Below are positions 35,824 to 57,621 of a stretch of DNA of 64,000 nt, one piece after another (the first letter of the stretch is position 1; every line of letters starts with the position of its first letter). Both the position numbers and the translations under genes were made by a program. The DNA comes from Haplodiscus bocki (taxonomy: Eukaryota), in contig OZ296649.1 of assembly GCA_965655095.1 (NCBI GenBank), positions 11,780,001 through 11,844,000 on the forward strand, in the 5' to 3' direction. Under the pieces are notes generated by a model. That model was not told where the DNA came from. It saw only the letters and a program-made list of their open reading frames with translations, and made no database searches.

Positions 35824-36255
35824 TTAGGTTGATGAGCTTAATGCCTAAAAAACTGTAAGCTTGAGAGAGGTCAATTGTCCGTAACAGAATGCCTACAGGT
35901 ATTTTTAATTTGGCAAAAGATTACCCAATCTTGCTCGCATAAATCAAAGACAATCTTTGGAGACATTTCTAAAGTTAGTTTCCAATTTGATGATGTAAGT
36001 GAAAAAAATTAACCTCAAAGTTTGCAGCACAGCTGAATTGTGTGTTAGGTAATTCTCAGTCTGTATTAGCTCGTCTGATATTTCTTTTACTCTGAAATCA
36101 TCAACAAGCTGCACAGAGTACGTTCTCAAGAACGATTATTATTTGACTTGTTTTGTCCATCAAAATAACATTCAGTTAAATCTCTTCAAAACGGAAGTAC
36201 ACACTGAAAAAGTTAAATTATCTCATCGACTATCAATCGATATGAAATTTTGGAT

Positions 36256-36515
36256 GGCTCTTTCCCGTTATCCCCCCCCCCCGCCCTACTGACAAAATTA
36301 TTATCCCCCCTTCCTAGCTGATGCTCAGATGAGCAGTATGGTTGAAGTTTCTGTTTAATATAAAGTTATTGCAAATACCTGTTTGTTTAACTAGCTTCAG
36401 CAAGCAGTCAGCTTCTTGGAGGGTACTTGAGAGTTGTGTATTGTGTGCACAGTCTACTGACTCGCAAAAGACGCTACAGCTTCGATTGGGGGGGGGGGAT
36501 AACGGGAAAAAACCC
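36256..36515. mobile_element. Mutator-like MITE (~260 bp)
   Basis: TIR GGCTCTTTCCCGTTATCCCC / GGGGATAACGGGAAAAAACCC; 9-bp TSD ATTTTGGAT / AATTTGGAT. Confidence 0.85.
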
Positions 36516-36673
36516 AATTTGGATATTTAATGCTCAAACTGCCAAGTATGCCTGAGTTTTTTAAAATTTCCTTTGAAAAATCATCGAAAAATCCCAGCTT
36601 TTTCTAAAATAACCCACATTCTGGACCCAAAATATGTTTTTGGCTGGCGTTGCTTTTCTGAAGAAGTGCCGAC

Positions 36674-36873
36674 NNNNNNNNNNNNNNNNNNNNNNNNNNN
36701 NNNNNNNNNNNNNNNNNNNNNNNNNNNNNNNNNNNNNNNNNNNNNNNNNNNNNNNNNNNNNNNNNNNNNNNNNNNNNNNNNNNNNNNNNNNNNNNNNNNN
36801 NNNNNNNNNNNNNNNNNNNNNNNNNNNNNNNNNNNNNNNNNNNNNNNNNNNNNNNNNNNNNNNNNNNNNNNNN
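36674..36873. other. Assembly gap (200 N)
   Basis: Run of N. Confidence 1.
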
Positions 36874-37719
36874 GTATAAGAATTCGAGGTTACAGATCTT
36901 GGTCATCGAATTTATTGAGCGTTTTCAAATTAGTCAGTTCAGTTCCATGATGGAAAGTGCCAAGCCAAGTCACTTTTGGAGATGAATCAGTACCTGCCAA
37001 ATTTTCACTATACTATTTCTTTGCAAACCATTGATGAAGCTAATTAACGGTGACAATAGGGAAACTGACACAGATGCGACGCTGCGCTTCACAACACTTG
37101 CGCCAACGGAAAACTGGAGAACATATTGAAAAAACAACTGATTTTTGGAGGGGTCACGATAATACGAATATGAGCTGTACAAAAACTCAGTAAATTCTAG
37201 TACATTTATATGCAAGAGACGCTATAGTACTTCAATCGCTTGATATTTTAATAAAAATACTAATTCTCGAGCGATAATATCACAGTCAGTAGAACATGCA
37301 GAGAAAAGATCTGCCATCACGCGCTATTCTTATACCAGATGAACTGCCGGAAAATGTAAGTTGAATGGTTTAACTTCCAAGATGTTTTCCATTCGAGTGG
37401 TTGTTCAGATCAGTTGTCCGGAACGTAACTCTCTCCATGTCGACCAAACGGCTCGACATGGAAGTACTCGTCCGCAGAGCAGAGCAAGCATTTCTAATCA
37501 CTCCAGAGCTTACCATCTACATTCAAAACTTATTTTCTCAAATCAAAATACTCTAGAGCGATCTACCAGATTTCCCTTGACGCCTGTATGTCCGGGAACT
37601 GAAACTTACTCTCAATCCAAGATGTATTTAATCTAAGGAGCTCTCTGATATTGACCTGAATGTGATCGCAAGAGCATTGGTTTTATTAAATGAGCATTTC
37701 ATCTAGCTAACTACATAAT
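36874..37719 (+). mobile_element. Second copy of the Penelope remnant (copy B, left part), interrupted by the LTR element
   Basis: GIY-YIG remnant at 37361-37636; the sequence resumes at 56625. Confidence 0.85.
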
Positions 37720-40342
37720 TGTCGCCCGTAGTAGGGGGTATTGCAAATCTATTAGTTACTTAGTTGTGCTGGCGGTTGACTAAGTCAGCACTGCTGTGTT
37801 GTAGCGACGGCAATTCTTTATATTTCTCAATAGTGTGCCTTGCTTATCCGTGCGAACAAACGGATTGCGTGAATTCAAGCAAGGACTTGTGAGCTATAGC
37901 GGAGGATAATACAACGGAAAGTTAAATTATCAGTATTTCAATATTTTGAATTGCTGAAAGGAATATGACTGCACGTACGTAAGGGGGAATTACTCAGCTC
38001 TGGAGGAGTGAACGTATAAATAACATCACACTAATTCAGACTAGTTTAATTCAGTCTGATTTGAAATGATAAAAATAAATATAAAAGTTGAATTGGTTTA
38101 ATTAAATCAAATTAAGATTTTATAAAACCACAATGAGACGATCGGACTCTCTCAACTTCGTCGAAATGAATTTTGAACTGAATTTTCAAAATTAGAAAAT
38201 CGGATTCTTTCAATTCAGTCCAAATGAAGTATAAGTTATAAAGTAATAAAAATAGGCTGATACAGGATAGCTGCTGTCGGAACTGGAACATCCGTAAATA
38301 GAGCAACAACATACACCAATTTACTTTTTGACTAGTGCGGTGATTACCTTTCCGTCTTATCGAGTCAGGTTATTTTAGCCAGTTTGTTTTACGTTTAGCT
38401 AAACCACGTTATGCTCTAGTTTTCCAGGCCAACGGGTTCACCTCCTGGTCCCTGTTTTAGTCCTCGCTGCACAGGCCAGTCTTTGAGGGAAGGGAGTGCA
38501 ATTTACATGCATTTTACATTACTCTTAGTATAAAAAATCACCTCCGTGCGGTATAAAACCAGCTTGTAGGGTTTAATCTTAAGACTGGTATTTAGTCACC
38601 TGCTGATTAACAGTCCGGACCCACGGGACACCAGCAATTAAATTTTACTCTTTTAACTGCGACCAGGACATTAGTCAAGGACTGTCAACTAGTCGTGATT
38701 ATTATATGTGTTTTACTTTTACCAATCAATTCTAAGTCTTAGTAAAAAAAAGGAAAAATTCAAAAAAAAGGAATTTTAGAAAAGTAGGAAAAGTAACAAA
38801 AAGGTCCGCGGTGCGGTGATTAAACCCTGCTACCGGGCAGCTAATCCTACGTCAAATCTTGAGGAGATGTCCTCTATTAGCAACCGTAACTATAACTAAC
38901 AGAGGCTGGCGTGAATCGCGTAGGTGCTGCTTGTAGGATGATTACTGGCGGTTGCGTGAGTGCTGGTTGATGGATGAATGCTGGTTGCTGTTGCTGCTGT
39001 TGATAGCTGCTGCTGGTTGCGGCTGGGATACTGCTTGTTGGATGATTGCTGCCGCTGGTATACTGCTTGCTGGCGAAAAAGTCTTTGAATATTTTCAGGA
39101 TATTGATGATTTGCGGCTAAGACAATTCTGCAGTCGAAACAGTCTTTGAACATTTTCGGGATATTGATGATTTGCGGTTAAGACAAATCTGCAGGCGAAA
39201 AAGTCTTTGAATTTTTCCGAGATATTGATGATGTGCGGCTAAGACAACTCTGCAGGCGAAAAAGTCTTTGAATATTTTCGCTGAAGTGATGAGGAAAATA
39301 AATCAATGAGGAATTTATTTTAAATTCTTGATGAGATTGGAGTGGAAAAGAGGTTCGCCTCGGGTAAGTAGGCTAGCAGGTGGTAGGAAGCGGTTCTGAG
39401 AAATAGAGTGTACGGGGTATTCATACCCTGTTATGGCGCAATCGAATAATTAACCAATAGGAGAGCGCTGCAGATAGCAATGTTAACGAAGATCATTTAG
39501 TCGGTAGGAATAGTTTGTATTTTGCAAAAAGGGACGGTTTCTGCATATTTAATCCGTGTATTGGAAATTAGAATGAAGTCTAATTGCCACGGACGCAGAC
39601 GAGGTGAGATATGATCTATGTAACGTCAACTCTCTTTCATAGGAACCTCGTGGGGTCGTGCAGTTTAAGATTTATTCATGCTTCAGAACCGGAGCTCGTC
39701 AGCGGAATTCGCACACGCTAATACCGAAGCTAGCGTTAGTGGACACTGTGTTTAGACTCCAGCGGCAAAAGTATAGAATGAAGATGCGAGAAGGAATAAT
39801 TTTCTAACCCAGAATATTTTTATCCGAAGGAAGAGGAAAGAGAATTTAGATTAATTTTATCCAAGCAAAAGGGAAGAGGAACGTAAGGTAAAAAGGAAAG
39901 GAAAGAAAGTAAAGGGGAAGAGGAGAGTAAAATAAGGTAAAAGGGAAAGGAGTAAGGCGTTCCGTTCCGTCCGGTGAGCGAGTTAGTGAATAATGATCGA
40001 GTTCCTTTCCCGGACCAGCTCCCAAATGAAGCTATGTCGAAATACCACGTGACCAGTCACGTGATCATGCAAGCAGGGTGCATGTCTAAATTTGAATATT
40101 GAGCCAATCGCGTTGAGCCACGTTCCAACGCATTTAGAAACTTTGCTTTTCCTTCCTTTGTGCAATTCCAATCCTTCAGCTTTCTTTTATACCGCGTGTT
40201 ATTTTATCCCGTCCAGCTCCCACGTTAGTCAATAACGTCTGCAGTTCTCTTTGTTAATCATTAATCATTTCCTGTTTAACAGCTTACTGCACGTATTTGA
40301 GAAATAAAACACATTTGTTTAAGCATTAGCTATAACCCGACA
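37720..40342 (-). repeat. 3' LTR (2623 bp)
   Basis: TGTCGCCC...CCCGACA; homologous to 53590-56624. Confidence 0.95.
39069..39280. repeat. 61-bp tandem repeat (~3.5 copies) within the 3' LTR
   Basis: GCAGGCGAAAAAGTCTTTGAATATTTTCGGGATATTGATGATTTGCGGCTAAGACAATTCT, with unit starts at 39130, 39191 and 39252. Confidence 0.9.
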
Positions 40343-40395
40343 ACTCACCGGGGTTAAAAGGATAGAAAAGTGTTTGGGGGGTTCTATAAAAAGCA

Positions 40396-41043
40396 TCATG
40401 GTTGGGATGTGGAAGGTGTGGCGCCTTCAGGGTCACATAGGTCGGTGAACTTTATCTCCAAATATAAAGTATTATTTAAAAGAAAGTTTTCAGTTTTGCA
40501 GAACAACTTGCTGTATGGGAAGAAGTTGAAGTTCGTCAGGGTAGGACATGGTTCTCGGGTAGGCGTTCGAAAGGATATCTTCTCGGAGGGTGCGAAGGTG
40601 ATAGTCCACTTATTCTGGGCGTCAAGTTGATCACAGACTGATAGATGAGTCGCTTTAGGGAACGGCCATGCCAATAAGCCATCGTAATCGCCGGGGAAAA
40701 AGGCGAACATAATTGAGGCGTGATTTCCAGTGGCAGAGTCCAAACGCTAGGGGTAAAACTGAACAAAGAAGTTATAGCCATGAGGGTGTGTGCGGTACAC
40801 AGGTCTATCATAATGAGTACTGGGGTTTGTGGCAGCATCGTCAAGTCGGACAGCAGATTTGGCAGTGTCGAAAACTAATGTCAAGGAAGTTAATTTCCAC
40901 AGGATATTGTCGGAGCCTCCAGACTCCAAGGCTCGGAATCTGTCATACAGAAAGGAAGGTAAATTGGGATCGGTAGATGGATATAATCGTTTCTCGACAC
41001 TTTCTTGCCTTAGTAACTTCTTCCAGTTGTTTGACTCGGGCTT
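40396..41043 (-). pseudogene. TRAF-type MATH domain with short coiled coil, captured by the LTR element
   Basis: EARVKQLEE..RFRALESGGSDNILWKL..PVYRTHPHGYNFFVQFYP*..TGNHASIMFAFFPGDYDGLLAWPF..LSVCDQ..FAP..SFRTP..FLLNNTLYLEI. One frameshift and one stop; preceded by the acceptor TTTTGTTAG. Confidence 0.9.
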
Positions 41044-41105
41044 CTAACAAAATGAAATTATTAAATGAAAAACAGCTAATAAGGATAACGCTCAAATTAT
41101 CCTAA

Positions 41106-43213
41106 TCAAACAGGGGAAAGAGCGATAGTATGATGATGAACAATCGGGTAAATGTGTTCTTCCTTCTTCTTATTTTCATCTACTGGATCTCTAGTCTCGT
41201 CTTCTATTCTTGTGGATATTGGTTCAGATTCCAACGCTTGTAGAAGAGGAGCTTGGGGATTGAATAGTGACGTTAGATTAGACGTCAAAAACAAACTGTA
41301 AGAAGCGCTCAGGGGTGCCTTGCCAAATCCAAGTGATGCGCCAGTAGGACGGTTAGCTTTCATGTGTCGTAAGATCATAACTATGATATCGACGATGAGC
41401 TTGATAAACAGGAAGCAAGAGAAATATATTCCACAAAATTCCAAAACATAGGCAACTAATCCAAACGTGTCCATAAACTGATTTTTGAAATAACTGGGGG
41501 AAATCATGTTGTCCACAGAGAATGCCATTCCTGGGGCATAATAAGAGTATTGTTCTGGTCCATGAATTGCTGTGTTGGGGACAAGGAGTTCTCAAGAGAA
41601 ATTTTATAAAGTTTTCCTTGAAGCAGCGCTGATAAGGATATTGTCCCAGAATCCAGATAACTGTGCTCGTGTGTAGATTCCAGCATCTCCTGCTTCACCA
41701 AAAGCTCTTCTGGATACAGGAGTCACATCCTTTGGTCCGAACACTGCAGGGCGTTTCCTGTGTTCGAGTGGGTGTAATAGTGAACCAAGAGTTCTCATAT
41801 TCCATGTCAAATTGAAAGAGATTCTTAATCCGGTCCGAACAATTTTGAACTTGGGCATGTGGGTAGCTTTGCCTGGTGATTGGGTCAACAAAGAAGCTGG
41901 CATTTTTGTAGAAGATAGGGATTTTGTCATAGCATTGGTTAATCACATGTGGCGGAGAACGCATCAGAGGGCAGTGATATAGCCAAGCGAGGCTGCCATC
42001 GGTACTGAGGAACATAGAGCGATTCCCAGTTACCATATAACCAGTTAGACGTGGGTTTTCCATTGAAAGCATCAAAATAGTCAATATTTCGGTTCTTTCT
42101 TGTTCGCATAGGTTCTTCAAAAGTTGTATCTCGGAGCCTTCAAGCATCTTTGAGCTTTCGAAGAATAGATAATCCAGTTTGGTTCCCTCATGGAGTTTAC
42201 AGTGTACGTTGAGGTATTGAGGCGTTTCTGGGTTAGGTTTATTTGTATGGGGTGACTCAGACTTATGTACGAATAGCCTGCCGTCAGATGAAACTGGAGG
42301 CTGGTAGTATTGTAGATGTTGTGTTCCTCCTGAGAATTCCATTCTTTTCCCAGAAGCTAGATCGAATCCACCAAAGTCGACAACCACGTATAATGAATCG
42401 TAGTTGGTCGGGTATACTTGTACTGGTTTGTTACAGAAGATCTTTGCTTCCGATTTTACTTCGAACAGATACTGGCTGCTGTTGTTTCGTCCACTGACGA
42501 TATAATAAATGTTTTTTACTTATTGATCATGTTAACGTCTTCTTTCCGATGAATAGCTAACACCCAACTGTCAGGGGCGTCCCATGGTAATTGCAATCCG
42601 TCTTCGCTCATAACTTGGCCATCCTTATTACGTATTTCAAGCACGACGTCTCGTACATGGCCTTCAAATGTCTTGCGATTTACCCATCCATATGAGTCGC
42701 ATTGACTTGTATATTTGTCGCTGAGGTCCGCTCCATCGTTATCAAAATCCTTTATTTTACAACCGTTGTTTTGACTCCTTTCTTGAACTCGAGTGTCTCA
42801 TCGTTTAAAGTGATTGAACCTCCTTTCGCTAAGGTTCTGCATTAAGATGCTGTAACGGTTAAGTCTATTGTTATTCCTCCTGTATGATGGGCGTCCATGC
42901 TTGAGTCGACTCCAAAGCCACAGTGACATTGTTCGCGCTGATATTTGACTCTACAGACTGTTGCGTTGATTTCTTGTCGAAAATGTTTTGTGTAGATAGT
43001 AATTTTTGCTCTGCTGACTTCTAGGTTCTCGGGAGCAATGTTGCATTTGGAAACTTGGTTTAAGGCGTAGGGGTTGTTCGCTGTCATCTCTCCACAGTCA
43101 TATTGTGTCACTTTGAGTTGGGAGGCTATGTCGTGCAAATCTGCGTTTTCGAGCTTGCCATTTGTGAAACTGGCTAAAACAATTAGGAACAAGACCTGGT
43201 CTATAACATCCAT
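41106..43213 (-). pseudogene. env: env: class III fusion glycoprotein (herpesvirus gB / chuvirus G-like)
   Basis: Signal peptide MDVIDQVLFLIVLASFTNG; YDC; CRVKYQREQCHCG; LDYLFF..LCEQER..ENPRLTGY..LYHCP..CYDKIPI..FVDPITR..QNC; C-terminal TM VAYVLEFCGIYFSCFLFIKLIVDIIVMIL. Frameshifted. Confidence 0.85.
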
Positions 43214-43339
43214 TGCATTTGCAAATGGGAAGGGTAGAGAGGAATGTTTCATCACAACTACCAAGAGAAAAGAGACAGCCGTAATATATTTTACCGGCTA
43301 CTTCGTAGGCACTAACAAGAAGCGGTAGCACTAAATTTA

Positions 43340-43585
43340 TAGAGTCGCTACACTACTCTAAAAAACGACGCCGAGATTTTTATAAAGGGTGCCGGACTAA
43401 AACCGGTATCACCAAAAAAGTGCGCCGGACTAAAACCGGTATCGTCAAAAAAGTGCCAAAAAAAAATTTATCTTACTTCCACCATAGGTAATAGATGATT
43501 GTAGTTCCCAGTTGGCTCGCACGTTCAACTATCCGGGTTTTGTTTGTTTGTAGTTCCCAGTTGGCCCTTACGTCCAACTATCAGA
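43340..43585 (-). promoter_or_regulatory. Putative internal promoter upstream of env
   Basis: Minus-strand TATAAAAA at 43384-43377, just downstream of two duplicated motifs (GCCGGACTAAAACCGGTATC x2; TTGTAGTTCCCAGTTGGC x2) and ~170 bp upstream of the env ATG. Confidence 0.4.
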
Positions 43586-43674
43586 AATTTGTTTATTGGT
43601 GAAGCAGATTGGTTGATTTGAATGTGTTGCTAAGACTTTGTAGGGGTTGTGAACAACTCATCTACCTTCTTCGT

Positions 43675-44085
43675 CTATTGTCTGAGTTCCAGGTCGTAAA
43701 GATTGCAAAGTTCGTGCAATAGGTTGATCAGTGACACCCCAGTGTAGGTCCCAAGGTTAGCTTTCATATACGCCAGGAGATCTACTAATCTTTGATTTTC
43801 CGTCGTGTCTAAAATCGGAGTGGCCAAGTTCCGACCGGCAATTGTGAGGGTCACAAAGAGGTTGGCGAATTCTGCTGCGCGGGCAGGTATTGGGATAACA
43901 ATTACAGTGGGTAGATTCTCAATCGGGTTGGTTCGGACTTGTAAAGGACTCCCGGCGGGTAGCGAAAAAATATTAGTGATTTTACACTCTCCCAAATTAA
44001 TTGAAGTCCAGTTGCAATTGAAATTAACTCTGTTGAGTGGTGTGTTTGTGTGTGACTGGGAGATTGATATTTCTAATTGATGCAT
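43675..44085 (-). CDS. Accessory ORF of unknown function (136 aa)
   Basis: Intact ATG-to-stop ORF between pol and env, abutting the upstream ORF (TGA-ATG). Confidence 0.6.
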   Translation of the reverse strand: MHQLEISISQSHTNTPLNRVNFNCNWTSINLGECKITNIFSLPAGSPLQVRTNPIENLPTVIVIPIPARAAEFANLFVTLTIAGRNLATPILDTTENQRLVDLLAYMKANLGTYTGVSLINLLHELCNLYDLELRQ

Positions 44086-44307
44086 TCAAATGATGAGTTC
44101 TTCCTTTCCACACTCCAGGTCTCCTGGAATATAAATGTCTGTTGCGAACAGTCGTCTGATGTGTTTGTAGTTGATTGATGTTTGTGGACACTTGTAGACT
44201 TCGAGATTCCCCTCTCCGTCTTCTGTATGGATATAGATCGCTGTTGATGAGGACTTCAGGTCAAACTTTTTGATACACTTCAAATACCCATCAATTTTGA
44301 CATACAT
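44086..44307 (-). CDS. Accessory ORF of unknown function (73 aa, possibly 5'-frameshifted)
   Basis: Protein-like composition; its stop directly precedes the next ATG. Confidence 0.5.
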   Translation of the reverse strand: MYVKIDGYLKCIKKFDLKSSSTAIYIHTEDGEGNLEVYKCPQTSINYKHIRRLFATDIYIPGDLECGKEELII

Positions 44308-44794
44308 CGTTCATAGCAAATCTGAGGATGTACTCTTCAGTTAATTCATTGCTAACGATGTATAATTTAGGTAAGTATTATATATAGTAACTATGTACTA
44401 AATAATGTAGGAATTTAGGAAACTAGGTTTTTCGTACTATCAACTAAAAAATCAAATAAAATGAATAAAATGTGTATAAAAGTTTTGGTGGCATCCTCTT
44501 TTTTTGTTTCGTTCTGCTGTCCTCGTCACTGCAGGGCCTTCCGGGGGTTAGAAGGGTAAGGTAGGCGTTTATAAGTTTAGGGCGAAATTCAAATAAACAA
44601 CTGGGAGAGAATCCTTCAGCACTGTTTTTGGTTCCGGGAGAATAGCCTAGAGCTATCTCTTGTCGGGAGCTCTTCGATTTCTTATCATTGACCTGTCGGC
44701 AAGGGGCAGCATCATTGTGCCGAATAGGATAGAGGCGTCATATTAAAAGCAGGATGGTCGTAGGTTCCAAGGGTTAAGGTAAAATTATTGCAGG

Positions 44795-45347
44795 ATGGAC
44801 AGTGACTCGGACTCCTACTACGAGGAAAATTGTGAAAATGAACAAGAGGTGGCGAGCCCCCTACACAATCGTGCAAGTAAATCTGGAGGACTCTACAGAA
44901 TCCCCACAGCCAGGTCCTCCGTCGCCCTTGCTGCCACCGCAACCAATTCCTGTGGGCGAATTGTCCCCCGTCTGGGAGCTGCCAGACGACGGGACGAATT
45001 TTATAAATTTTTTCACAAGAGCAGATGTGCTCGACCTAAAACAAAGGTCAGAGGCAACGCGACAAAGAAGAAATGAAGAAGGGTATATGGTGGAGGAGCC
45101 AATGCTGTCTCTGAAGTTTGTTTCGTTCCTCATAGAGTATCACGGTACTCAATGGGAACTTAAATTCATGCGGGCAGCGGCAGAGCCGTTGTTCGCCCAG
45201 TTATTGGGGTATGTAGCGGGTTATGCGCGGCTAACCAGCCACAACAAAAAGATCTTCCGCCAGGGATTCGAGACCTGGTCCGTGGAGGTCAAAAGGGAGC
45301 AGCTGAGGTTGTTGGCGGAGTCGGTCGGTTTCCTCGGATTAGAGTAA
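44795..45347 (+). CDS. Antisense accessory ORF (~180 aa)
   Basis: 181-aa open frame opposite to gag/pol/env, with a Pro-rich linker and helical C-terminus; probably starts with the acidic MDSDSDSYYEENCENEQEV via one frameshift. Confidence 0.55.
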
Positions 45348-48300
45348 GCTGCTCGGCTCTGTCGGTCGTCGGGGGCCTTTTAGCCTTCGGCGGTCTTTAT
45401 ATTGTCTTGTGCCATAGTTCACTGTGCAGCTTTCTTCTTTGGAATTGCACAACAAATAAAAATATTTTTGGCTTTACTGCAATATTTTTGTAAAAACTTG
45501 TAGAAAACATCAATCAGAAGTTGAAGTGGCGAGCAGAGGGTAAGTTGAATCGTCCACAGTGGAGGATCTTAGCAATATTGCTCAAGGTAATCGGAAATCA
45601 AGCAAAAGCAATAACTCCGAATAGGAAATAATGGTGCATGTAATATGAAAGTTATAAAATCGTGGCAATGTTATAAAAGGGATCAAAGTTCATAGCCCTG
45701 CCGGGTGATGGTTCTCAATACTGACTGAGAATTGGGTTGGTCTGGCTCTGAGCGGTTATATTTGGGCTCTTTAGAAAGCAATTTAACGCTATTTCCAGCC
45801 ATGCCGGCGGCACTGTTACGAAAAAATTGTTGAATTGGACTGAGAGGTTCCTTGGGCGACGATTGAGCAGCTTGTGCATACTGTGAAGAAGATGAATGGG
45901 TGGCTGATGTTCCAATAAGAATTGCGGGTGATAGCACAGGAGTTCGAGAAGAAGCACGTGGAGAAGTAATTCCTGAATTGTTACTGTGCGTACTAGGTCG
46001 TTTCGGCTTGTTTGTGGACCAAATAGCTCGTAACGGTTCTATTGGGAATGAGAAGGAGTCATGCTCTTGTTATACTTGGGTTTTTCAAATCTCGGGCGCG
46101 TTGTTCCCTAAAGCGTTTGTAGAAATTGTTCTGTTGATCAGGAGGTACATATTCTTCGATCATCGCGGGTAGGGATCCTTCTTTGGGGTAATACTCGACA
46201 AGGTGATTTCGATGAACAGTTTTGATAATCGTGGGGTCTTTATCATCCTGAATTTGATAGGTGGTATTCGTGATAAGCTTGGTGACAGTAAAGGGTCCAA
46301 GTCGTCGCTGTTGAAAATTTTGGCTTCGAGTAAGGTCTTGTTTGTGATTTTCATAGAGAAATTTCTGTCCTACTTCGAGGTGATGTCCCAGCTTGAAACG
46401 ATTGCGATAGGCGTGTGATCGTGCACTTTGTTCACGGCAACGTTCAAAGGTTGATGAATAGATTTGTTTGAAGGTTAGTTCTCTGTCTAAGAGAGCTTGT
46501 GATAATTGCGGCTGAAGTAGCTTGTCTAACAATTCGTTTTTTAAGCTGTTCTCGCTATGAGAAAGAGGGGGGCGGTCCTTACAGAAGTTAGAGCAGCAAA
46601 GCTTGTGCTTATTCCGATAAAGTTCCAATCTGAGGGACATAGGAATTTGGGGTTTAGTCAAGAAGACAATTTCATATGGGGTTCTCCCAGTTGTGTAGTT
46701 GAAACTTGTGTTGTGGGCGAATGCAAACTTGGGTGCTAGCGAAGACCAGTTGTTTCCGGTATCGTTCAGAAAGTTTCGCCAGAATCGAGCAATATGTTGG
46801 TTCTGGGTTTGAATTTTACCATTTGTCCAGGGTGAATGAGCTGTACGAGGTCTTAGGGTAATTCCAAGTTCTTTGGTCCAGTTGACGAACTCTGTATTAA
46901 TAAAGGCAGTGCATCGATCATGGATGATTGATTGCGAGATTCCACAGGAAAGGATCCACTTTTCCACAGTTGTAATAGTTGCTAGTGCTGTTGTATCACG
47001 TACTGGGTAGACCATCAAAAATCGAGAGAAGGCATCAATGATTAAGAGACAATGTACATTGTTGGCACCAATTGGGTGAAGAGGTCCCTTATGATCAATG
47101 TGCACAGTGCGAAAGGGAACTGTTTCGTTTTGCCATTCCTCTAGTGGAACTTCATTCCGATGCTTTGGTTTAGGTTTATTATTCTGGCAAGTAAGGCAAT
47201 CGGCTGTCAAAGCACATATCCAACCAAACATTCCAGGCCAAAAGTAAAATCTCTTGGCATTGGCATAGGTTTGGTTGCTCCCTTGTGTCCACCCATTTCG
47301 TTGTAGTGTCCCACTCGGAAGCATGCAAGGAAGATGCATAAAGGGAGGCAAATACGGAGATTCTCTTCTAGCTTGTCTGACGGTTCATTATAGCAAAGGA
47401 GCTGTCCTTCTTCTTCAATAAGACGTCTATCTAATTCTTGACAGTATCGTAGGAAACCTTTAGACTGTTGGATCTCTGGTGATATAGTATCGGGAGGAGT
47501 GTTTCTACGAATCCATGAACGTATAGAACCAAGGACTGGACCTTCATTTGTCCTGTGAGGATAGTCGATACGTCGAAGTCGACTGTCTTCGCAATCTCAT
47601 CAAGTTTCCGGATTAACGCCTTGGTATCTAGATGAAAAGCATCACAGGTTGTTAGGAATTTCTTGACTAGCGAAGCATCAGTTTTCCCAAGCACCAGGTC
47701 GTGAGCTTCTTTGGCTTGACAGAGTCGGGCTCCGTCAGCTTGAATACTGATATCACAGGCGATATTGTCATCTTTTGAGTCGGTACTAATGTGGTGTGAG
47801 TCATCGCCGGGGCTCGTCGAGTCTGCTGTGTCATCTTGGGACGGCCTAAAGGAGTTGATTGAACTATAGTCGGTATTGGATGCGTTGGGAGAGACGCTTG
47901 ATTGGGTCTCTGGTCCACATATTCGTCTAAATTGGTTGATAAGTCTTCCCATTCGGAAACAGCCTGAAGCCTGTTGGATTGAAGTGATTGGAAATTTGTC
48001 GAGCATACAACTGACGGTAAAGTCCTCGCCATCGTTTTGTAATCTCAGTATTTTTTCTTCGTTGCCGCGTTCGTACTTTATTGGGTAGAAATCGTTGCAG
48101 GTATTATTAGGGTTGTCTTCATGTTGAATTTGGTAAGACACCGGAGTGCCGTGTTAGTCGAAAAACTCAATATCACGCGGAATACGTTTGTGTTGCATTT
48201 GGTGCTTTTGATATTCTTCGATCATGATGTTTCTGCTGACAGTATCTGGAAAGGCTAAGTTCGAGCCTGGCGTCCAAATGATCTTCAAGTTCTGGGATTT

Positions 48301-49879
48301 CGTAATGATCACCTGATATCGGAAAAAGCGATGCGATAGTTGTCATTTTCGGCCCCATAGATGAAGAATTGGTTCATGATTACAATAGAGATAAATGGGA
48401 AACGCTGATCCAATAAAGTGGTGTTCGTATGTCTGGAGAGCTGATACGATTCCACATAGTTCTCGATGGAGAGTGGACAATTTTTGTTCTGCTTTGTCAA
48501 ATACACGCGAATTGAAAGAGATAATTCTCTTTCCCTGAGGGAATTGTTGGATAAGAATACAACCTGTACCAACATCTGAAGAGTCCACGTGAATATGAAA
48601 CGGGTAATCGGTAGAAGGAACTGCTAGAACTGTACCTTTGTGAATTCGTTCCTTAATGGTGTTGAACAAATTTTCGTGTTCTTCAGTCCAGTGGAAAAGT
48701 GTAGAATCTTTAGGTCATAAAAGGGCTGACTATCAACGTGTAAGTTCTTGATAAAGTAGCTGTAGAAACTAAGACATCCCAAGACAATCATAACGTCTCG
48801 CCTACTCGGTGGTGACTTGAGGTTCCTCAGGGCGTCCACACGCTTTGCTATTGGTTGAATCCCATCTGGTGAGATAACGTGTCCCAAGAACTTTACTTTC
48901 TTGAGAAGAAAAACGTCTTGTCGTGGGCAGCTTTTAACCCAGCCTTCCGCAGAAGGGTGTGATATTCATTGATGATGGTGAACATCTCGCCTCTAGTTTG
49001 CGATTGCATAATGGTGTCATCAATGTAGGTAATTGCTTGCTTTTTCCTGATCAGTGGGTCAAAATGAACCGTCATCAAGCGATTGAAGATGTTTGGTAGG
49101 CCACACAGACTGTAAAAACCTCGGGTGAAAGTATATTGCCGTCCACCGAAGATGAAGCTTGTCAATTTCTGTGTTTCGAAGCTAAGAGGTACTTGATGGT
49201 ATGCACAGGACAGGCCGCTGACTGAGAAGAACTTTCCATTTACTCTCATCATAATCATCTGAACGGGTCCTAATGGCCAGGAATAGTTTGTGAGGTCGGT
49301 CACTGAGTTCACATAGCGAGCATCAATCACTAGTTTGACGTAGTCATTCTTTGGCATCAGGAATATTGGGTTAACAAAGAGAGCTCCCATCTCGTCGTCA
49401 TCACCCATTTCTCGAATGATTTCGGCGTCCTCAAATTGTGTCAGCAGTTTCTCGAGTTTGTCTCTCAGATGTAACGGTACTTTGTTAGCTTGCTTGCGTT
49501 TCAGTTCCACGTTCGGTTTTAATATAACGTGAAATTTTCGTTGGGTTTTTCCAACATCGAATTTGTGGAGGGAATACACATCCTTCGAGTCGATTAGCAT
49601 ATCAATAAGGAGGGTCAATTCATTGTCAGTGATGTCTGAGTACTGAAAATCGAATCGTTTAACGTAATCAATTAGCTCTTTAGGCTGATACTGAAGATAG
49701 TGGTCAAAAAGAGCGAGCTTCGTTTTCTTCTTTCGGGCGTAGAACGGGAAATTGTTATCGCAAACTGGTTGACAGGACTTGGCGTCGCTGGTAAAATCAG
49801 TTACAAATTCCCTTTCGTTCAAATGAAATTCCTCGCTATATCGGTCTATCTCATCTTCGGCATAACTCAGCGGAAATAG

Positions 49880-50050
49880 CGTGAATTGCGTGTTCGTCTA
49901 ATGAGTAGACCACGTTTTGTATATCTGAATAGGCAAAGATATTTCGTAGGAGCTTTACTACATCTTGCCAGTTCATCTGGTCAAGACCACATCCAATCTT
50001 TGGTATGGCAATCGTTGAAACTCCGTGCATTGTAGAGCGTGCTTGCAATC
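49880..50050 (-). pseudogene. C-terminal half of a TARG1/OARD1 (DarG-like) macrodomain within pol
   Basis: MHGVSTIAIPKIGCGLDQMNWQDVVKLLRNIFAYSDIQNVVYSL matches the PxIGCGLD.L.W..V...F....I.VY.L signature. Confidence 0.85.
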
Positions 50051-50877
50051 GTTGTACTGTTCGTTTGTCGAAAAGATTGCGTTCGTTAGCTCATAAGGGT
50101 CCCGTACTTGGTACTCTGGTTCATCGTTGTCGGAGACGTCCAATGATGAAAAGCCAATTCGGCCCTTAGGCAAAGTAATTTGGTGATTCTTGTTAATTTC
50201 CATAAGTATAGTTAGTTTTGATTCTGATGGAGTGCATAGCACAGTGACAAATGATAGTCCCGTAGTGACAGCATTGCGATTTGGGTGAAAAGTTGATCCA
50301 GGAGGGAAATGAGCGTGAGGATCTTCAGGAGAATACTTCCAGCATCTTGCGCTCTTGGCTTTAATGTGCATTGCATGCGGAGTTCGTATTGTTAGGATTT
50401 GCGAAATGAAAGGGTGCGATTTGTTCTGATGAAGGCTTCCATAACACACAGTATTTGGTGGGTCTTTAAGTGCAATTCCGGGTGAATCAAAAGGAATACC
50501 AGATTTTTGCTTTTGACAGAAGTCCATGCCCAGGAGGTTCTGAGTCTTCATTTTGGTAATCCAGGCAGTCAAGGGGAAAGAAAATTGTCCATCCGGATCG
50601 TAACAGAGTGTTAATGTAGCAAAGCCAATCATAGGCACAACTTGACCAGAATAAGTCCTTGTTTGTGTAGTGTTTCTTTTCACCTTGATTGGATGTTGGG
50701 TTTGGCATATTCCCCGAATGGTTCGATAGTTTATGACTGAGCTAGAAGCTCCAGTATCTAACACGAATCCAAATTCTAAGCCACTATCTTTTTGAGTGTC
50801 TCCGGTGGCAAAGAAGAAAAAGTTAAAGCTGAGTCTTGAATTCTTGGACGGATTAGTAGTAGTTGAACTTGGAGACC

Positions 50878-52264
50878 TTAATAGTTTAAAGGGCATAGTC
50901 CCGATAGTTCATTCATTTCATCGTCTGTTGTATTGAACCGAAAGACGTTCGGCTGACCACCATTATTGGAGGTTGGGAACTTCTTGTTTTAGGGATTAAC
51001 ACTGAAGGATTAGGCGAGTTGAGTCGGGGTTGTCTGCGGGAATCCGTAAAAGATGAACCTTGTCCTGCCGTTGAAGGCGATCGCGAATAGTTATTGTTAC
51101 TTCCCCAATTCCTAGATTGATCTTGGTCGGACTGATATGGTTGGTGATCTCGCTCTGCAGTCGCTGAACCGATTATTGTTGTTACTCGGGTAGTCTCCTC
51201 GCTCGAAAGGTCTGTTTTGTCTGAATCTGCTAGAAATCTGATTACTTGGCCGAAGTTTCCTCCAGTAAAAGATCGGGGGGTTGACATCATAGCCCCATTA
51301 TCATCGTTCTGTCTGGTCCAATTCCCAGATCTATGGGAAGGTCCACGTCACTTGTTGTAGTCATGGGTGAACGTAATCTTTTTCTCGGCTGTGGCTTCAT
51401 TCTGTAACTTCTTGACTTCTTCATATCGTATCTTCTTTCTGCAAAAACTAGGAGTCTGACCATTGGTTCTACAGTATCCACAAAATCTTGTAGCATTCTG
51501 TCTTCTCTTCTGGTTAGGGTCAATGGTTTTCTGGTTCCCTTCTAAAGCGTTTATTCTGTGTTCCTTCAGATCAGTTCGTAGGTTTTTTAATTGTCCCAAG
51601 GAGGCCATTTGAGCCTTGTTCTGATCTTCGTCGTTCAGGAAGCTAGTAGACTTGATAAGATACGTCTTTGTAGATTAAATAGGTTAGAAATCGTTCCAAG
51701 TTGCATTTGGATGTTCCATCAGATATTCCTGAGCCTTTCGTTGTAGATACCTTGGTCTGAGTCCCCTTAGTGTGTAATCGATGTATCTTTATCGTCTCTG
51801 GCGAACTTGTGCGGTGCGTTCGGCGGCCTGTTCAGCTGCTACAACTCCATCCATATCGTCGGGCCAGCCTTTGTCCACTGTTTTCATTAACCGGTGAAGG
51901 AAGTTTCGAATCTCTTCTCCATCTGCTCGTAAACAATGTTCAACTTCCATTCTGTGTCTGAAAATGTTTCTTCCATCTGAAAATCTGGTTATGAACAGAG
52001 TTCGGACCTCATTCGAAGTCATTGCATCTTGAATAGTTCCCCATACCATTCAGCTGCTGGTGCTCTTAGCAATGAAGAAAATAAGACTTTCTTTCTGAAT
52101 AAATAAATAACATGTTCTGCATCGGCTTCGTCTGGTTCGGTTCCGAGAGCAAAATTATTCTAGCACTCTATTAAGCGGATGAATGCTTCTGCAACTTGGT
52201 CTGGGTCTGTGCCAGAGAATTTGTCCAGTGCCAAGTCTGGGTAAGCTAGATGAGTATTGGCCAT
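50878..52264 (-). pseudogene. gag: gag
   Basis: MANTHLAYPDLALDKFSGTDPD..LLRAPAAEW..FITRFSD..GEEIRNFLHRL; Zn knuckle CGYCRTNGQTPSFC (His lost). Stops and frameshifts. Confidence 0.88.
50884..50890 (-). promoter_or_regulatory. -1 ribosomal frameshift heptamer U-UUA-AAC at the gag/pol junction
   Basis: The gag frame reads ..TGC CCT TTA AAC TAT TAA; the -1 frame TTT AAA CTA is the open protease frame. Confidence 0.65.
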
Positions 52265-52282
52265 TTTAGCAATTATATCTTC

Positions 52283-53100
52283 TCAAAACAAGAAGTCTAG
52301 TTGTTCTCCAAGAATATGAAGTTGGTGGGAGTTCAAGTGGGGTTCAGGGAAATCCACGTCATCGTTTAGTGCCTCTGATAGAGATTCAAGTAAAGGGTGA
52401 TGTTTCTTAATGTTTATTCGTTTCGAATTATTTGGGTTTTCTTCTGGATGGGCAGTCATTCTGATCCAAAAAGTCCATTTCAAGCACGTAATGATGGCTG
52501 CTAGGGTTTCGTGTCTTGGGAGGTGATATTCCAGAGGCAAATCAGTGGAATATGTTTGCAGTCTTCTTCGGGTAGCTCGTCCAAATTCGTTATCGAACTT
52601 TCAAATTTTTGTGGCATTAGTTCTCAACACGAATTTATTATGAAAGAACAATTGAAGTTGTCTATGTATATTGGTTCACCACTGGGTCAGTATGGAGTGA
52701 ATTGATAACTGTCAAGTCCAATTCGGGAAATCCAAGTTCTGGAAAATCGTGACATCTTTGAATAGCAGCGATTGAAGCAAAATGTTCGTGGAATCTCAGT
52801 GTAATAAATTTAATAAATAGGGGTTCCCCAGTGGGATGGACTTGTAAACGAAGCCGAAACTGTCGGTGAAGGGTGAAATCAATCCTTGCTATTGTCACTT
52901 CTAGTTGTTCGGTTGGGGTTTTTATTGTCCACGGGCAGAACGGGAATACTGGTTTGAATTCGTTGTATTCGAAGAAGTACCAATGTTGGTTTGGGTCCTT
53001 TCCAAATTCCAGGGGCATTAGCTAATTATTCGTCAGATTGCTTGTTCAGAATTTGCCCAATTTTAATAACTGCCAAGATATAACTGGGTCCCAAGTGTAG
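52283..53100 (-). pseudogene. Pre-gag accessory ORF of unknown function (fragmented, ~250 aa)
   Basis: ORF pieces at 52662-53018 and 52283-52540, linked by a protein-like frame and ending just before the gag ATG. Confidence 0.5.
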
Positions 53101-53359
53101 AGGTAGCAAAAGAATCAGCACGAGATACAGGAAAAGCACGAGGTCTCCTCTCATTTCCGAATGGTAGAGTTGCTGTGATTCAGATTGTCGTCAATCTCGG
53201 ATAGTGCATCCAAAAGGGCAGGATTCAGCAAAAAAAACCAATACTATTAAAAGCAGCAGATATAAATAAATTATTAAATCGTGATTCATCTCCTTAAAAA
53301 ATAAATTAGTTTATCAAAAACAGTGGTAAAGCACATTTGAAGCACCCAAAAACGATGGA

Positions 53360-53563
53360 TTAATTCTTAGGAAAGATTCTCAGCAGGTTCGAGTGAAAAA
53401 GGCTCTGATAGAAGTCTAAAGCCCAATCGATCATTATTCCAAAATAAGCGCTTGTAATAAAGGAAACAGAAGCACCCAGTATAAGAATTAAAGTGAAAAT
53501 TAAAAATGACCATGTTGGCAAAAGGGAGAAAAAACTATCTGATACTTCACAAGTATAGCTCAT
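53360..53563 (-). CDS. Small hydrophobic (transmembrane) leader ORF, 67 aa
   Basis: Starts just after the PBS; contains LLPTWSFLIFTLILILGASVSFITSAYFGIMI. Confidence 0.45.
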   Translation of the reverse strand: MSYTCEVSDSFFSLLPTWSFLIFTLILILGASVSFITSAYFGIMIDWALDFYQSLFHSNLLRIFPKN

Positions 53564-53570
53564 TGATGTG

Positions 53571-53586
53571 CTTCACTGTCGCGCCA
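53571..53586 (-). promoter_or_regulatory. Primer-binding site TGGCGCGACAGTGAAG (tRNA not assigned)
   Basis: TGG begins 3 nt inside the 5' LTR end. Confidence 0.75.
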
Positions 53587-53589
53587 GTT

Positions 53590-56500
53590 TGTCGCACGTG
53601 GTAGGGGGTATTGCAAATCCATTAGTTACTTAGTTGTGCTGGCGGTTGACTAAGTCAGCACTGCTGCGTTGTAGCGACGGCTATTCCTTATAAGTCTCAA
53701 TAGTGTGCCTTGCTTCACCGTGCGAGCAAAGGGATTTCGTGAATTCAAGCAAGGACTTGTGAGCTATAGCGGAGAATAATACAAAGGAAAGTTAAATTAT
53801 CAGTGAAGGTATTTCAATATGTTGAATTGCTGAAAGGAATATGACTGCATGTACGTAAGGGGGAATTACTCAGCTCTGTCTGAGGCTGTAAACATGGGAT
53901 AGCACAGGGGAAATTGCCATATGGTCTTTAAATTTACGTTACGCAGTTATACTATATATCCAACTTTCTCTCCTTTTATTTCAAATTAAACATTATCCAT
54001 AGAAATTTATATAAAATTCTATCTTCAATTATTCCACTTTAATTAAATTAAACCGTGGATTTAGTGGAAAGAAAGCATTTTATTCAGCAAGAAGTCAGAA
54101 GTTTAAAAACAGGGTTAAAGGGGGATGCAACAAATTGTTAGAATTTAAAAAAGTTATAAACCGGGAACGTTAAATTAGTTTCACTTTAGGAGTGAACGTA
54201 TAAATAACAACACACTAATTCAGACTAGTTTAATTTAGTCTGATTTGAAATGATAAAATTAAATATAAAAGTTGAATTGGTTCAATTAAATCAAATTAAG
54301 AATTTAAAAAACCACAATGAGAAGATCGGACTCTTTCAATTTCGTCCAAATGAATTTTTAATTGAATCGTCAAAATTAGAAAATAGGATTCTCTCAATTC
54401 AGTCGAAATGAAGTATAAGTTATAACATATTAAAATTAAGCTGATACACGATAGCTGCTGTCAGAATTGGAACATCTGTAAATAGAGCAACAACATACAC
54501 CATTTTACTTTTTGACTAGTGCGTTGATTTCCTTTCCGTCTCATTTAGTCGGCTTTTTTTACCCAGTTTGTTTTCCGGTTTGTTTTACGTTTAGCTAAAC
54601 CACGTTATGCTCTAGTTTTCCAGGCCACCGATTCAACCTCCTAGTCCGTTTTAGTCCTCGCTGGATAGGCCAGTCTTTGAGGGAATGGAGTTCAATTTAC
54701 ATGCATTTTAATTACATGCATTTTACACTACTCTTAATATAAAAAATCACCTCCGTGCGGTATAAAACCGGCTTGTCGGGTTTAATGTTAAGGCTGGTAT
54801 TTAGTCACCTGCCGATTAACAAACCGGACCCACGGGACACCAGCAATTAAATATTACTCTTTCATCTGCGACCAGGACAATAATAGAAGAACTGTCAACT
54901 GGTCGTGATTATTATATGTGTTTCACTTTTGCCAATCAATTAATTCTACGTCTTAGTAAAAAAAGGAAAAATTCAAAAGGAGGGCATTTTAGAAAAAAAA
55001 GGATAAGTAACAAAATGGGCCTCGGTGCGGTGATTACACTCTGGTACCGGGCAGCTAATCCTACGTCAAATGCTGAGGAGATGTCCTCTCTTAGCAACCG
55101 TAATGATAACTAACAGAGGCTGGCGTGAATCGCGTAGGTGCTGCTTGTAGGATGAATACTGGCGGTTGCGTGAGTGCTGGTTGATGGATGAATGCTGGTT
55201 GCTGTTGCAGATTGCTGCTGTTGATAGCTGCTGCTGGTTCCGGCAGGGATACTGCGAGTTGGATGATTGCTGCTGCCGGGATACTGATTGCTGGTGAGAA
55301 AATCTTTGAAGATTTCCAGGATGTTGATGATTTGCGGCTAAGACAATTGTGCAGGCGAAAAAGTCTTTGAACATTTTCGGGATATTGATGATTTGCGGCT
55401 AAGACAATTCTGCAGGCGAAAACGTCTTTGAATAATTTCGGGATATTGATGATTTGCGGCTAAGACAATTCTGCAGGCGGAAAGTCTTTGAATACTTTCG
55501 GGATATTGATGATTTGCGGCTAAGACAATTCTGCAGGCGAAAAAGTCTTTGAATATTTTCGCTGAAGTGATGAGGAAAAAAAATTCAATGAGGAATTTAT
55601 TTTAAATTCTTGATGAGATTGGAGTGGAAAAGAGGTTCGCCTCGGGGAAGTAGGCTAGCTGGTGGTAGGAAGCGGGTCTGAGAAATAGAGTGTACGGGGT
55701 ATTCATACCCTGTTATGGCGCAATCGAATAATTAACCAATAGGAGAGCGCTGCAGATAGCAATGTTAACGAAGATCATTTAGTCGGTAGGAATAGTTTGT
55801 ATTTTGCAAAAAGGGACGGTTTCTGCATATTTAATCCGTGTATTGGAAATTAGAATGAAGTCTAATTGCCACGGACGCAGACGAGGTGAGATATGATCTA
55901 TGTAACGTCAACTCTCTTTCATAGGAACCTCGTGGGGTCGTGCAGTTTAAGATTTATTCATGCTTCAGAGCCGGAGCTCGTCAGCGGAATTCGCACACGC
56001 TAATACCGAAGCTAGCGTTAGTGGACACTGTGTTTAGACTCCAGCGGCAAAAGTATAGAATGAAGATGCGAGAAGGAATAATTTTCTAACCCAGAATATT
56101 TTTATCCGAAGGAAGAGGAAAGAGAATTTAGATTAATTTTATCCAAGCAAAAGGGAAGAGGAATGTAAGGTAAAAAGGAAAGGAAAGAAAGTAAAGGGGA
56201 AGAGGAGAGTAAAATAAGGTAAAAGGGAAAGGAGTAAGGCGTTCCGTTCCGTCCGGTGAGCGAGTTAGTGAATAATGATCGAGTTCCTTTCCCGGACCAG
56301 CTCCCAAATGAAGCTATGTCGAAATACCACGTGACCAGTCACGTGATCATGCAAGCATGGTGCATGTATAAATTTGAATATTGAGCCAATCGCGTTGAGC
56401 CACGTTCCAACGCATTTAGAAACTTTGCTTTTCCTTCCTTTGTGCAATTCCAATCCTTCAGCTTTCTTTTATACCGCGTGTTATTTTATCCCGTCCAGCT

Positions 56501-56624
56501 CCCACGTTAGTCAATAACGTCTGCAGTTCTCTTTGTTAATCATTAATCATTTCCTGTTTAACAGCTTACTGCACGTATTTGAGAAATAAAACACATTTGT
56601 TTAAGCGTTAGCTATAACGCGACA
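53590..56624 (-). repeat. 5' LTR (3035 bp)
   Basis: TGTCGCAC...CGCGACA; has an extra ~0.3 kb (53879-54187) and ~4.5 copies of the 61-bp repeat (55290-55561). Confidence 0.95.
55679..55740 (-). promoter_or_regulatory. Putative LTR core promoter: CCAAT, TATGAATA, Inr-like TCAG
   Basis: TATGAATA at 55707-55700 lies 28 nt upstream of the A of TCAG (55679); CCAAT at 55736-55740. Coincides with the LTR divergence step. Confidence 0.55.
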
Positions 56625-57621
56625 ATGTTTTCTGTTGCTTTTGATTTCGGATATTGTTTCACTGATGATGACGTAATCCTCTAAATGAATTTTATCCAAA
56701 TGTAATTAATTAATTAATTCTATGCTCCAACATCACATGATATTTCCAAGGAAGATTTTTCTTTTTCACACCTTCACGTCGTTTCGAGCAATTTTCGTTA
56801 GGTTGATGAGTTTAATGCCTAAAAAGCTGTAAGCTTGAGAAAGGTCAATTGTCCGTAACAGAATGCCTACAGGTATTTTTAATTTGGCAGAAAGATTACC
56901 CAATCTTGCTCACATAAATCCAAAAGAATCTTTGGAGACATTTCTATAGTTAGTTTCCAATTTGATGATGTAAGTGAAATAAATTAACCTCAAAGTTTGC
57001 AGCACAGCTGAATTGTGTGTTAGGTAATTCTCTGTTTGTATTAGCTCATCTGATATTTCTTTTACTCTGAAATCATCAACAAGCTGCACAGAGTACATTC
57101 TCAAGAACGATTATTATTTGACTTGCTGCGTCCATCAAAATAACATCTCTTCAAAACGGAAGTACACAGAAAAAGCCAAATTATCTTATCGACTATCAAT
57201 CGATATTAAATTTTGGATGGGTCTTTTCCGTTATCCGCCCCTCGCCTACTGACAAAATTATTATCCCCCCCCCCCCAGCTGATGCTCAGCTGAGCACTAT
57301 GGTTCAAGTTTCTGTTTAATACAAAGTTCTTGCAAATACCTGTTTGATTACTTTAACTAGCTTCAGCAAGCAGTCAGCTTCTTGGAGGGCACTTGAGATA
57401 TGTGTATTGTGTGCACAGTCTACTGACTCGCAAAAGACGCTACAGCTTCGACTGGGAGGGGGGGGGATAACAGAAAAGACCCATTTTGGATATTTAATGC
57501 TCAAACTGCCAAGTATGCCTGAATTTTCCAAATTTCCTTTGAAAAATCATCGAAAAATCCCAAGTTTTTCTCAAAAATAACCCACATTCTGGACCCAAAA
57601 TATGTTTTTGGTTGGCGCTGC
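56625..57621 (+). repeat. Copy B (right part) of the duplicated segment
   Basis: Homologous to ~35658-36652. Confidence 0.92.
57219..57482. mobile_element. Mutator-like MITE
   Basis: TIR GGGTCTTTTCCGTTATCC / GGATAACAGAAAAGACCC; perfect 9-bp TSD ATTTTGGAT. Confidence 0.9.

Follow-up and report, generated by a model that had tools for sequence, protein, structure and literature searches.

Envelope-bearing Ty3/Gypsy elements with ten accessory genes in the genome of Haplodiscus bocki

The window analysed here, a 64,000-nucleotide stretch of the Haplodiscus bocki genome (GenBank assembly GCA_965655095.1, contig OZ296649.1, positions 11,780,001 to 11,844,000 of the forward strand), contains a decayed proviral copy from a Ty3/Gypsy lineage present in high copy number. 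Intact siblings of this copy encode gag, pol with an internal macrodomain, env and ten accessory open reading frames (ORFs), one of them TRAF-like. The gene order is common to at least five families, the lineage is abundant and recently active, and purifying selection is clear for eight of the ten accessory ORFs and weak for the other two (u1 and m3). Considering this evidence jointly, we suggest that this env-bearing Ty3/Gypsy element probably spreads between cells as an enveloped particle and directs part of its cargo against host defences. Accessory-gene-rich genomes with antisense genes are usually regarded as a trait of vertebrate retroviruses; a Ty3/Gypsy lineage that has ten accessory ORFs, spans five families and exceeds 1,700 copies points to convergent complexity after envelope gain.

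Intact siblings and selection on their genes

Searches of the 1.5-Gb host assembly with env, TRAF and reverse transcriptase (RT) each gave more than 1,000 first-look candidates. The exact 26-nt junction between the long terminal repeat (LTR) and the primer site occurs 1,761 times in the genome and the LTR start 2,547 times, with no occurrence of either reversed control. Five siblings of the same family (family A) with both flanks are 21.2–21.9 kb long, and their LTRs are 98.9–99.97% identical. An exact 4-bp target duplication flanks eight of ten copies (these five, four of family B and the window copy), and one other has a three-of-four match.

We sampled 32 family-A siblings, 12 picked by TRAF or env matches and 20 from the top of the RT list. 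The latter were chosen regardless of cargo, and a gene was scored as present if the fetched stretch contained it at no less than 50% identity. The macrodomain was found in all 20, env and the pre-gag ORFs in 19, and the TRAF-like ORF, x and the antisense ORF in 18 each; the cargo is not limited to the window copy. All frames are open in four of 33 copies. From 5' to 3', a sibling consists of the LTR, the primer site, four pre-gag ORFs (u1–u4; 72, 120, 117 and 113 amino acids), gag, pol, an antisense ORF of about 184 amino acids, m1–m3 (73, 73 and 136 amino acids), env, x (a 227-codon frame without Met), the TRAF-like ORF and the second LTR. The original prediction, made from the window alone, named pre-gag ORFs, three accessory ORFs (one of them antisense) and a TRAF exon; the pre-gag, antisense and small ORFs are indeed present in the window, but the siblings have more accessory ORFs than it named. 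The u2, u3 and u4 proteins are paralogues, as are m2 and its family-B pair, and profile comparison for one fold common to u, m1/m2 and m3 was weak (best E 0.004).

Six copies of family B, about 18 kb long, were found through a divergent TRAF, and five copies of families C, E and F through the primer site alone. In these four families gene order is as in family A, with one u gene and a varying number of m genes, and the TRAF-like ORF is present in four of the five primer-picked copies. Their RT is 84–93% identical to that of family A, whereas the accessory proteins are in most cases 25–65% identical, with the antisense, x and TRAF proteins mostly at 25–45%. Among copies whose RT is 95–98% identical, antisense alleles share 54–62%. 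The accessory genes diverge much faster than RT and the core genes, which fits host conflict. Four further primer-picked copies (L128, L130, L132, L134) are short non-autonomous, gag-only derivatives; two of these retain an x ORF with its own Met beside gag.

Ratios of nonsynonymous to synonymous substitution (dN/dS) were obtained from copies with an open frame only (17–32 of 33 per gene), broken copies being excluded. Pairwise dN/dS is 0.04 for env, 0.06 for the macrodomain and 0.10 for gag. It ranges from 0.10 to 0.25 for eight accessory ORFs (u2, u3, u4, antisense, m1, m2, x and TRAF) and is 0.38–0.40 for u1 and m3; three control spacers, read in all frames, gave 0.45–1.03. In a codon model on a fixed tree, omega = 1 was rejected for the same eight ORFs by twice the log-likelihood difference (2dlnL) of 62–680. 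For u1 and m3, 2dlnL is only 6 and 10, with omega at about 0.63–0.65. The antisense ORF is genuinely antisense, since each of the three sense frames over it holds 5–6 stops on average. The complex-retrovirus-like organisation of the original prediction is thus common to the whole lineage, and neutral evolution, which it had named as grounds for refutation, does not describe the eight constrained ORFs.

Envelope, macrodomain and TRAF-like protein

The env gene lies after pol and matches the Monjiviricetes fusion glycoprotein family (PF24664, E 2e-31 and 6e-40). Siblings encode 722–735 amino acids with a C-terminal membrane segment. Judged by these profile matches, env is a putative class III (gB/chuvirus) type fusion glycoprotein; it gave no sequence match in the PDB and no relatives among viral contigs. 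One could argue that the element now moves inside cells only, with env and the accessory ORFs as passengers or recently relaxed relics, given that env is open in just 11 of the 20 RT-picked copies and that gag-only derivatives are common (four of four short-leader copies fetched). But the env dN/dS is as low as that of pol, each of the five autonomous families retains env, and its open fraction is similar to that of other long genes (gag, 14 of 20). We consider such intracellular confinement very improbable, the selection results having already largely refuted it.

The macrodomain sits between protease and RT in pol. In siblings it matches human TARG1/OARD1 (E 6e-23) and DarG (E 6e-12, under the full-length cut-off), and it resembles both in keeping the Lys and Asp motifs, which we take to be the catalytic residues of the TARG1/DarG class; unlike them, it is embedded in a retroelement. 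Both motifs are exact in 26 of 33 copies, and the Lys motif is deleted in the window copy. The host genome has 31 PARP-domain matches. Several of these stand in very long open frames (1,700–2,500 amino acids), and three such frames have two PARP matches about 0.5–0.7 kb apart.

The TRAF-like gene of siblings is a single uninterrupted, intron-less ORF of 433–438 amino acids. What had been read in the window as a TRAF exon is a deletion remnant, because the window deletions cut an ORF that is uninterrupted in siblings. The protein consists of a coil and a TRAF-C domain (TRAF5 match, E 7e-16; MATH, PF21355, E 1e-19), and Pfam found no RING or zinc fingers in it, in contrast to the signalling TRAFs (TRAF2–6), which have both at the N-terminus; it has three Cys in 436 amino acids. 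It thus resembles the RING-less, TRAF1-like TRAFs and differs from them in a remodelled receptor-binding loop. A trimer prediction scored 0.73 against 0.01 for the best control, with a predicted local distance difference test (pLDDT) value of 83 and 90% contact agreement between runs. The mark for this score is reached by 21 of 30 solved pairs and by none of 23 single chains, and the prediction may reflect memory of solved TRAFs. The protein is, with this proviso, predicted to trimerise. It is 21–22% identical to the sole intron-bearing host TRAF found; therefore the capture is old or was made from another paralogue. A search with the host TRAF exon gave no homologues. The intron-bearing host gene itself (L077–L079; zinc finger and split MATH) is flanked by decayed pieces of the element clade. 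Elsewhere in the host genome (G000:C4:103366642-103404733), tandem units of about 1.8 kb match the family-B TRAF segment, many with open frames of about 307 amino acids; this array is possibly a satellite or a domestication.

Counter-defence appears the likeliest role of the macrodomain and the TRAF-like protein. The macrodomain would be cut out by the protease, travel in the particle and remove ADP-ribose from element proteins or nucleic acid. The RING-less TRAF would serve as an adaptor dead in ubiquitin ligation that draws off stress, NF-kB or death signalling; competition for the classical receptor motif is probably not the route. The env protein, in turn, would likely carry the element from soma to germ line. 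The lineage is a natural system for asking if ADP-ribosylation and TRAF signalling restrict retroelements outside vertebrates.

Several observations weigh against this proposal. Where solved TRAFs have R-x-Y-LNGDG in the receptor loop, every element family examined has x-x-Y-PYG, which weakens the idea of a receptor decoy. TARG1-like domains are found, at other positions, in at least seven unrelated Gypsy-like pols (P0184, P0219, P0201, P0240, P0254, P0255 and P0267), and the closest environmental pol relatives are without a macrodomain. No R-x-K/R-R site is present in env, u1 and m3 are barely separable from neutral, and eight small proteins gave no family or fold match.

Some of the same observations suit a different account, in which the cargo supports replication of the element itself instead of immune evasion. 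In that case ADP-ribose of the PARP1 type would be cleared by the macrodomain at intermediates of reverse transcription or integration, and scaffolding of RNA export, assembly or budding would fall to the TRAF-like and small proteins. The fusion of the macrodomain inside pol fits such a function, and its recurrence in unrelated Gypsy-like pols suggests that it may aid retrotransposition generally. TARG1 is, moreover, tied to DNA repair in the accessible part of one report (PMC4695847). The altered receptor loop and the two non-autonomous derivatives that retain gag and x only point the same way. This account does not readily explain why the accessory genes evolve far faster than the core genes, or why coil and TRAF-C are retained in every family. 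We regard it as the less probable explanation, though a serious one, and favour counter-defence for part of the cargo.

The element also supplies several small protein families without known relatives. The antisense protein has an acidic start and a predicted helical domain, and the u4 model is confident (pLDDT 85), a beta-meander plus helices. Fold searches with these models gave no significant hit (best Z 4.2, to PH-like domains, for u4, and 3.6 for the antisense protein) and no viral match under E 0.001. The ESM Atlas gave no match at 0.9 or above for the antisense protein and none for the C-terminal part of x.

Classification and closest known systems

Pfam and motif matches put protease ahead of RT, followed by RNase H and then integrase (PR-RT-RH-IN), with a Ty3-type RNase H and an H2C2 integrase; TG..CA LTR ends and a 4-bp target duplication, within the 4–6 bp usual for the family, are further features of Metaviridae (Ty3/Gypsy). 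A bridge of 300 amino acids in pol has no Pfam, NCBIfam or PDB match. Among solved structures, the RT-RNase H region matches Ty3 best (E 1e-32), followed by foamy virus (1e-23), caulimovirus-type (5e-19) and gammaretrovirus (1e-12) structures. The Pfam families for BEL/Pao gag and pol (Belpaoviridae) gave no match, and Ty3-type families matched instead. Nor was there a match to a second, acquired RNase H behind a tether, a trait of Retroviridae, of lokiretroviruses (PMC7947760) and reportedly of Odin elements; the element has a single RT_RNaseH with catalytic motifs. Troyka elements and Kuafuorterviruses, as far as the available text of their descriptions goes (PMC12440569; PMC11673190), have CG..CG ends, a 3-bp duplication, an xADD RT motif and no env, whereas the element has TG..CA, 4 bp, YIDD and env.

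An RT search of 1.84 billion representatives returned, among the best 150 matches, a few environmental pols at 38–50% identity and then matches at 33% or less. Metagenome contigs gave only generic Gypsy matches (26–32% identity). In a quick tree of 88 rows whose references are unnamed pols, with no named Gypsy clade, the environmental pols group with the host families in a single clade that has a long stem (Shimodaira–Hasegawa-like approximate likelihood-ratio test, 100; support 1.0 after removal of the longest row) and is separate from the other pols. It is conceivable, though on balance unlikely, that this clade represents a deep and so far unnamed branch among reverse-transcribing viruses, one in which a complex-retrovirus toolkit evolved independently of Retroviridae (a class III entry protein, an antisense gene, an ADP-ribose eraser, a TRAF antagonist and several new protein folds) and which still passes between animals as an infectious particle.

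The element resembles complex vertebrate retroviruses and fish endogenous retroviruses (ERVs) in that accessory genes lie ahead of gag and near env, one gene is antisense and a macrodomain is part of the cargo. Human T-cell leukaemia virus type 1 (HTLV-1) has an antisense gene. A second RNase H and a class I env set Retroviridae apart from the element, whose single RNase H is of Ty3 type and whose env is of class III type, so the likeness is convergent. That fish ERVs carry macro domains is taken from the available part of PMC4977317.

Within Gypsy, gB-type env is widespread in the 'ancient errantiviruses' of Chary and Hayashi, judging from the part of their work available (PMC13524379). [quoted passage not shown] That group is also marked by an env that forms a five-domain trimer with fusion loops and cysteine bridges, and by a bridge of RNase H plus 'mini' domain. 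The words 'macro', 'TRAF' and 'accessory' are absent from its main text in the version available. Its first filter allows up to 1 kb between pol and env and up to 10 kb in total, against about 2.65 kb and 15 kb in the element, and would likely drop the layout because both limits are exceeded. Size-limited errantivirus screens can miss elements of this kind.

Two further groups come close. The planarian Burro/GYPSM1 is, in the accessible text (PMC6431247), a giant Gypsy-like element with thousands of copies, a MATH/TRAF-C domain and env homology, for which interference with host apoptosis and ubiquitination was proposed. Burro encodes a single polyprotein of 4,873 amino acids in which gag and pol enclose an in-frame env, with BIR, BCL2 and ankyrin cargo, and a dUTPase between protease and RT; the element has separate ORFs, env after pol, a TARG1 macrodomain at the PR-RT position and an antisense gene. 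Oikopleura Tor3 and Tor4 are likewise divergent env-bearing Gypsy elements of a marine animal, with env from spliced or internal transcripts or promoters and a soma-to-germ-line model; an accessory gene set is not described in the portion available (PMC4402516).

The combination of MATH and env in Burro, the divergent env-bearing Gypsy elements of Oikopleura and an RT tree without named Tor or Burro RT leave some room for an already described group (a Repbase Gypsy clade, Tor-like or Burro-related). We nevertheless judge this improbable, since Burro is a single polyprotein with env between gag and pol, and the literature searched gave no such element. Five element motifs and the primer-binding site were not found in the errantivirus supplements (PMC13524379), of which the long table cells are partly covered. 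As to the novelty raised in the original prediction, no element with this combination was found in the literature searched, Repbase and subscription journals lying outside that search, but none of its parts is without precedent: Gypsy elements with gB-type env exist, Burro has MATH, and other pols contain macrodomains.

Replication signals and the window copy

In 32 of 33 copies the slippery heptamer T TTA AAC directly precedes the gag stop, and families B, C and E have G TTA AAC, suggesting that Gag-Pol is made by a -1 frameshift. A putative stimulating structure scored z 0.95 in the window and -2.2 in one sibling. The sibling primer-binding site complements the 3' end of a tRNA whose anticodon, CAT, marks it as Met. 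Nine copies (e.g. L161:1484-1529, L160) still have roughly half of this Met tRNA, with the anticodon loop CTCATAA, at the LTR junction, a direct record of Met-tRNA priming with over-copying. A first tRNA pattern search gave no match, nor did ARAGORN detect a free tRNA gene in any of three loci.

No polypurine tract was found before the 3' LTR, where 20 nt hold 7–11 purines in the window copy (40344-40363) and in siblings (36 of 36 junctions found). In its place stands a conserved G[GT]TGAGT, which resembles a splice donor (GGTGAGT at 40344..40350, minus strand, in the window copy). A similar GTAGGTGAGTTG lies downstream of m3 in 29 copies, each of x, m1 and env has an acceptor-like site upstream, and ATGA is the overlap of x with the TRAF start. 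These motifs suggest that splicing, together with stop-start coupling, likely serves to express the downstream genes. Contigs of four runs of one study, of unspecified type, yielded no listed GT..AG joint, which is no evidence either way on splicing. A joint at L048:3713-7198, present in contigs of several runs, leaves out about 3.5 kb between early env and the TRAF region and likely reflects a derivative with an internal deletion.

The window copy bears out the predicted LTR-bounded unit of 18.9 kb: it measures 18,905 bp on the minus strand (37720..56624), with a TG..CA LTR pair. All features below are on the minus strand unless stated. The 5' LTR (53590..56624; 3,035 bp, TGTCGC...GCGACA) has a 61-bp tandem array at 55299-55561; sibling LTRs (e.g. 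L022) contain 57–61-bp arrays of a few to dozens of copies. The 3' LTR (37720..40343; 2,624 bp, TGTCGC...GCGACA) is without a 308-bp stretch found in the 5' LTR. The pair differs at 138 of 2,620 aligned bases, with 99% identity in the first 1 kb and about 90% beyond, and the target duplication is mismatched (ACAT/ATTA). This identity drop and the mismatch suggest gene conversion or recombination.

A Pfam scan of 76 window frames (55 amino acids or more) matched aspartyl protease, Macro (weakly), RT, RNase H and integrase, then the Monjiviricetes fusion protein and finally TRAF/MATH, the gene order originally listed. The genes that had been named were thus recovered, but gag, pol and env are interrupted by stops and frameshifts. 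Measured against siblings, the copy has lost through four deletions the greater part of u3/u4, two thirds of the macrodomain, the m2 ORF, and x along with the N-terminal half of TRAF.

The primer-binding site (53571..53586) is degenerate. The hydrophobic u1 (53360..53563) has 67 amino acids, u2 (52662..53018) is open with 118, and a deletion of about 360 bp fuses the u3 start to the u4 end in a broken remnant (52286..52617). The gag gene (50878..52264; in siblings Retrotrans_gag and one CCHC knuckle) has the heptamer TTTAAAC at 50884..50890, directly upstream of its stop. The broken pol (45683..50890) comprises protease, macrodomain, RT (YIDD), RNase H, the bridge and integrase; of the predicted macrodomain only the C-terminal 50 or so amino acids are left (49899..50046), the upstream two thirds being deleted. 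The antisense ORF (44795..45347, plus strand) has a frameshift near its start. Both m1 (44086..44307; 73 amino acids, next to the deleted m2) and m3 (43675..44085; 136 amino acids) are open. The predicted class III env (41106..43252) is present as a broken gene, followed by the C-terminal half of the TRAF-like ORF (40396..41047; coil end and MATH), from which a 1.3-kb deletion took the N-terminal half and the upstream x frame.

The insertion lies within one copy of another 2-kb repeat unit (34795-37719 and 56625-57621), and the empty site is visible in a neighbouring copy of that unit. Elsewhere in the window, 51 frames gave no Pfam match. A 200-bp N gap lies at 36674-36873. At 1-10000, a 2.0-kb unit is repeated five times in tandem (60–97% identical), with no Pfam match in the frames scanned. 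At 16410-17155, TCTTGCAAGA-like units form inverted arrays about 500 bp apart, likely the ends of a small DNA element.

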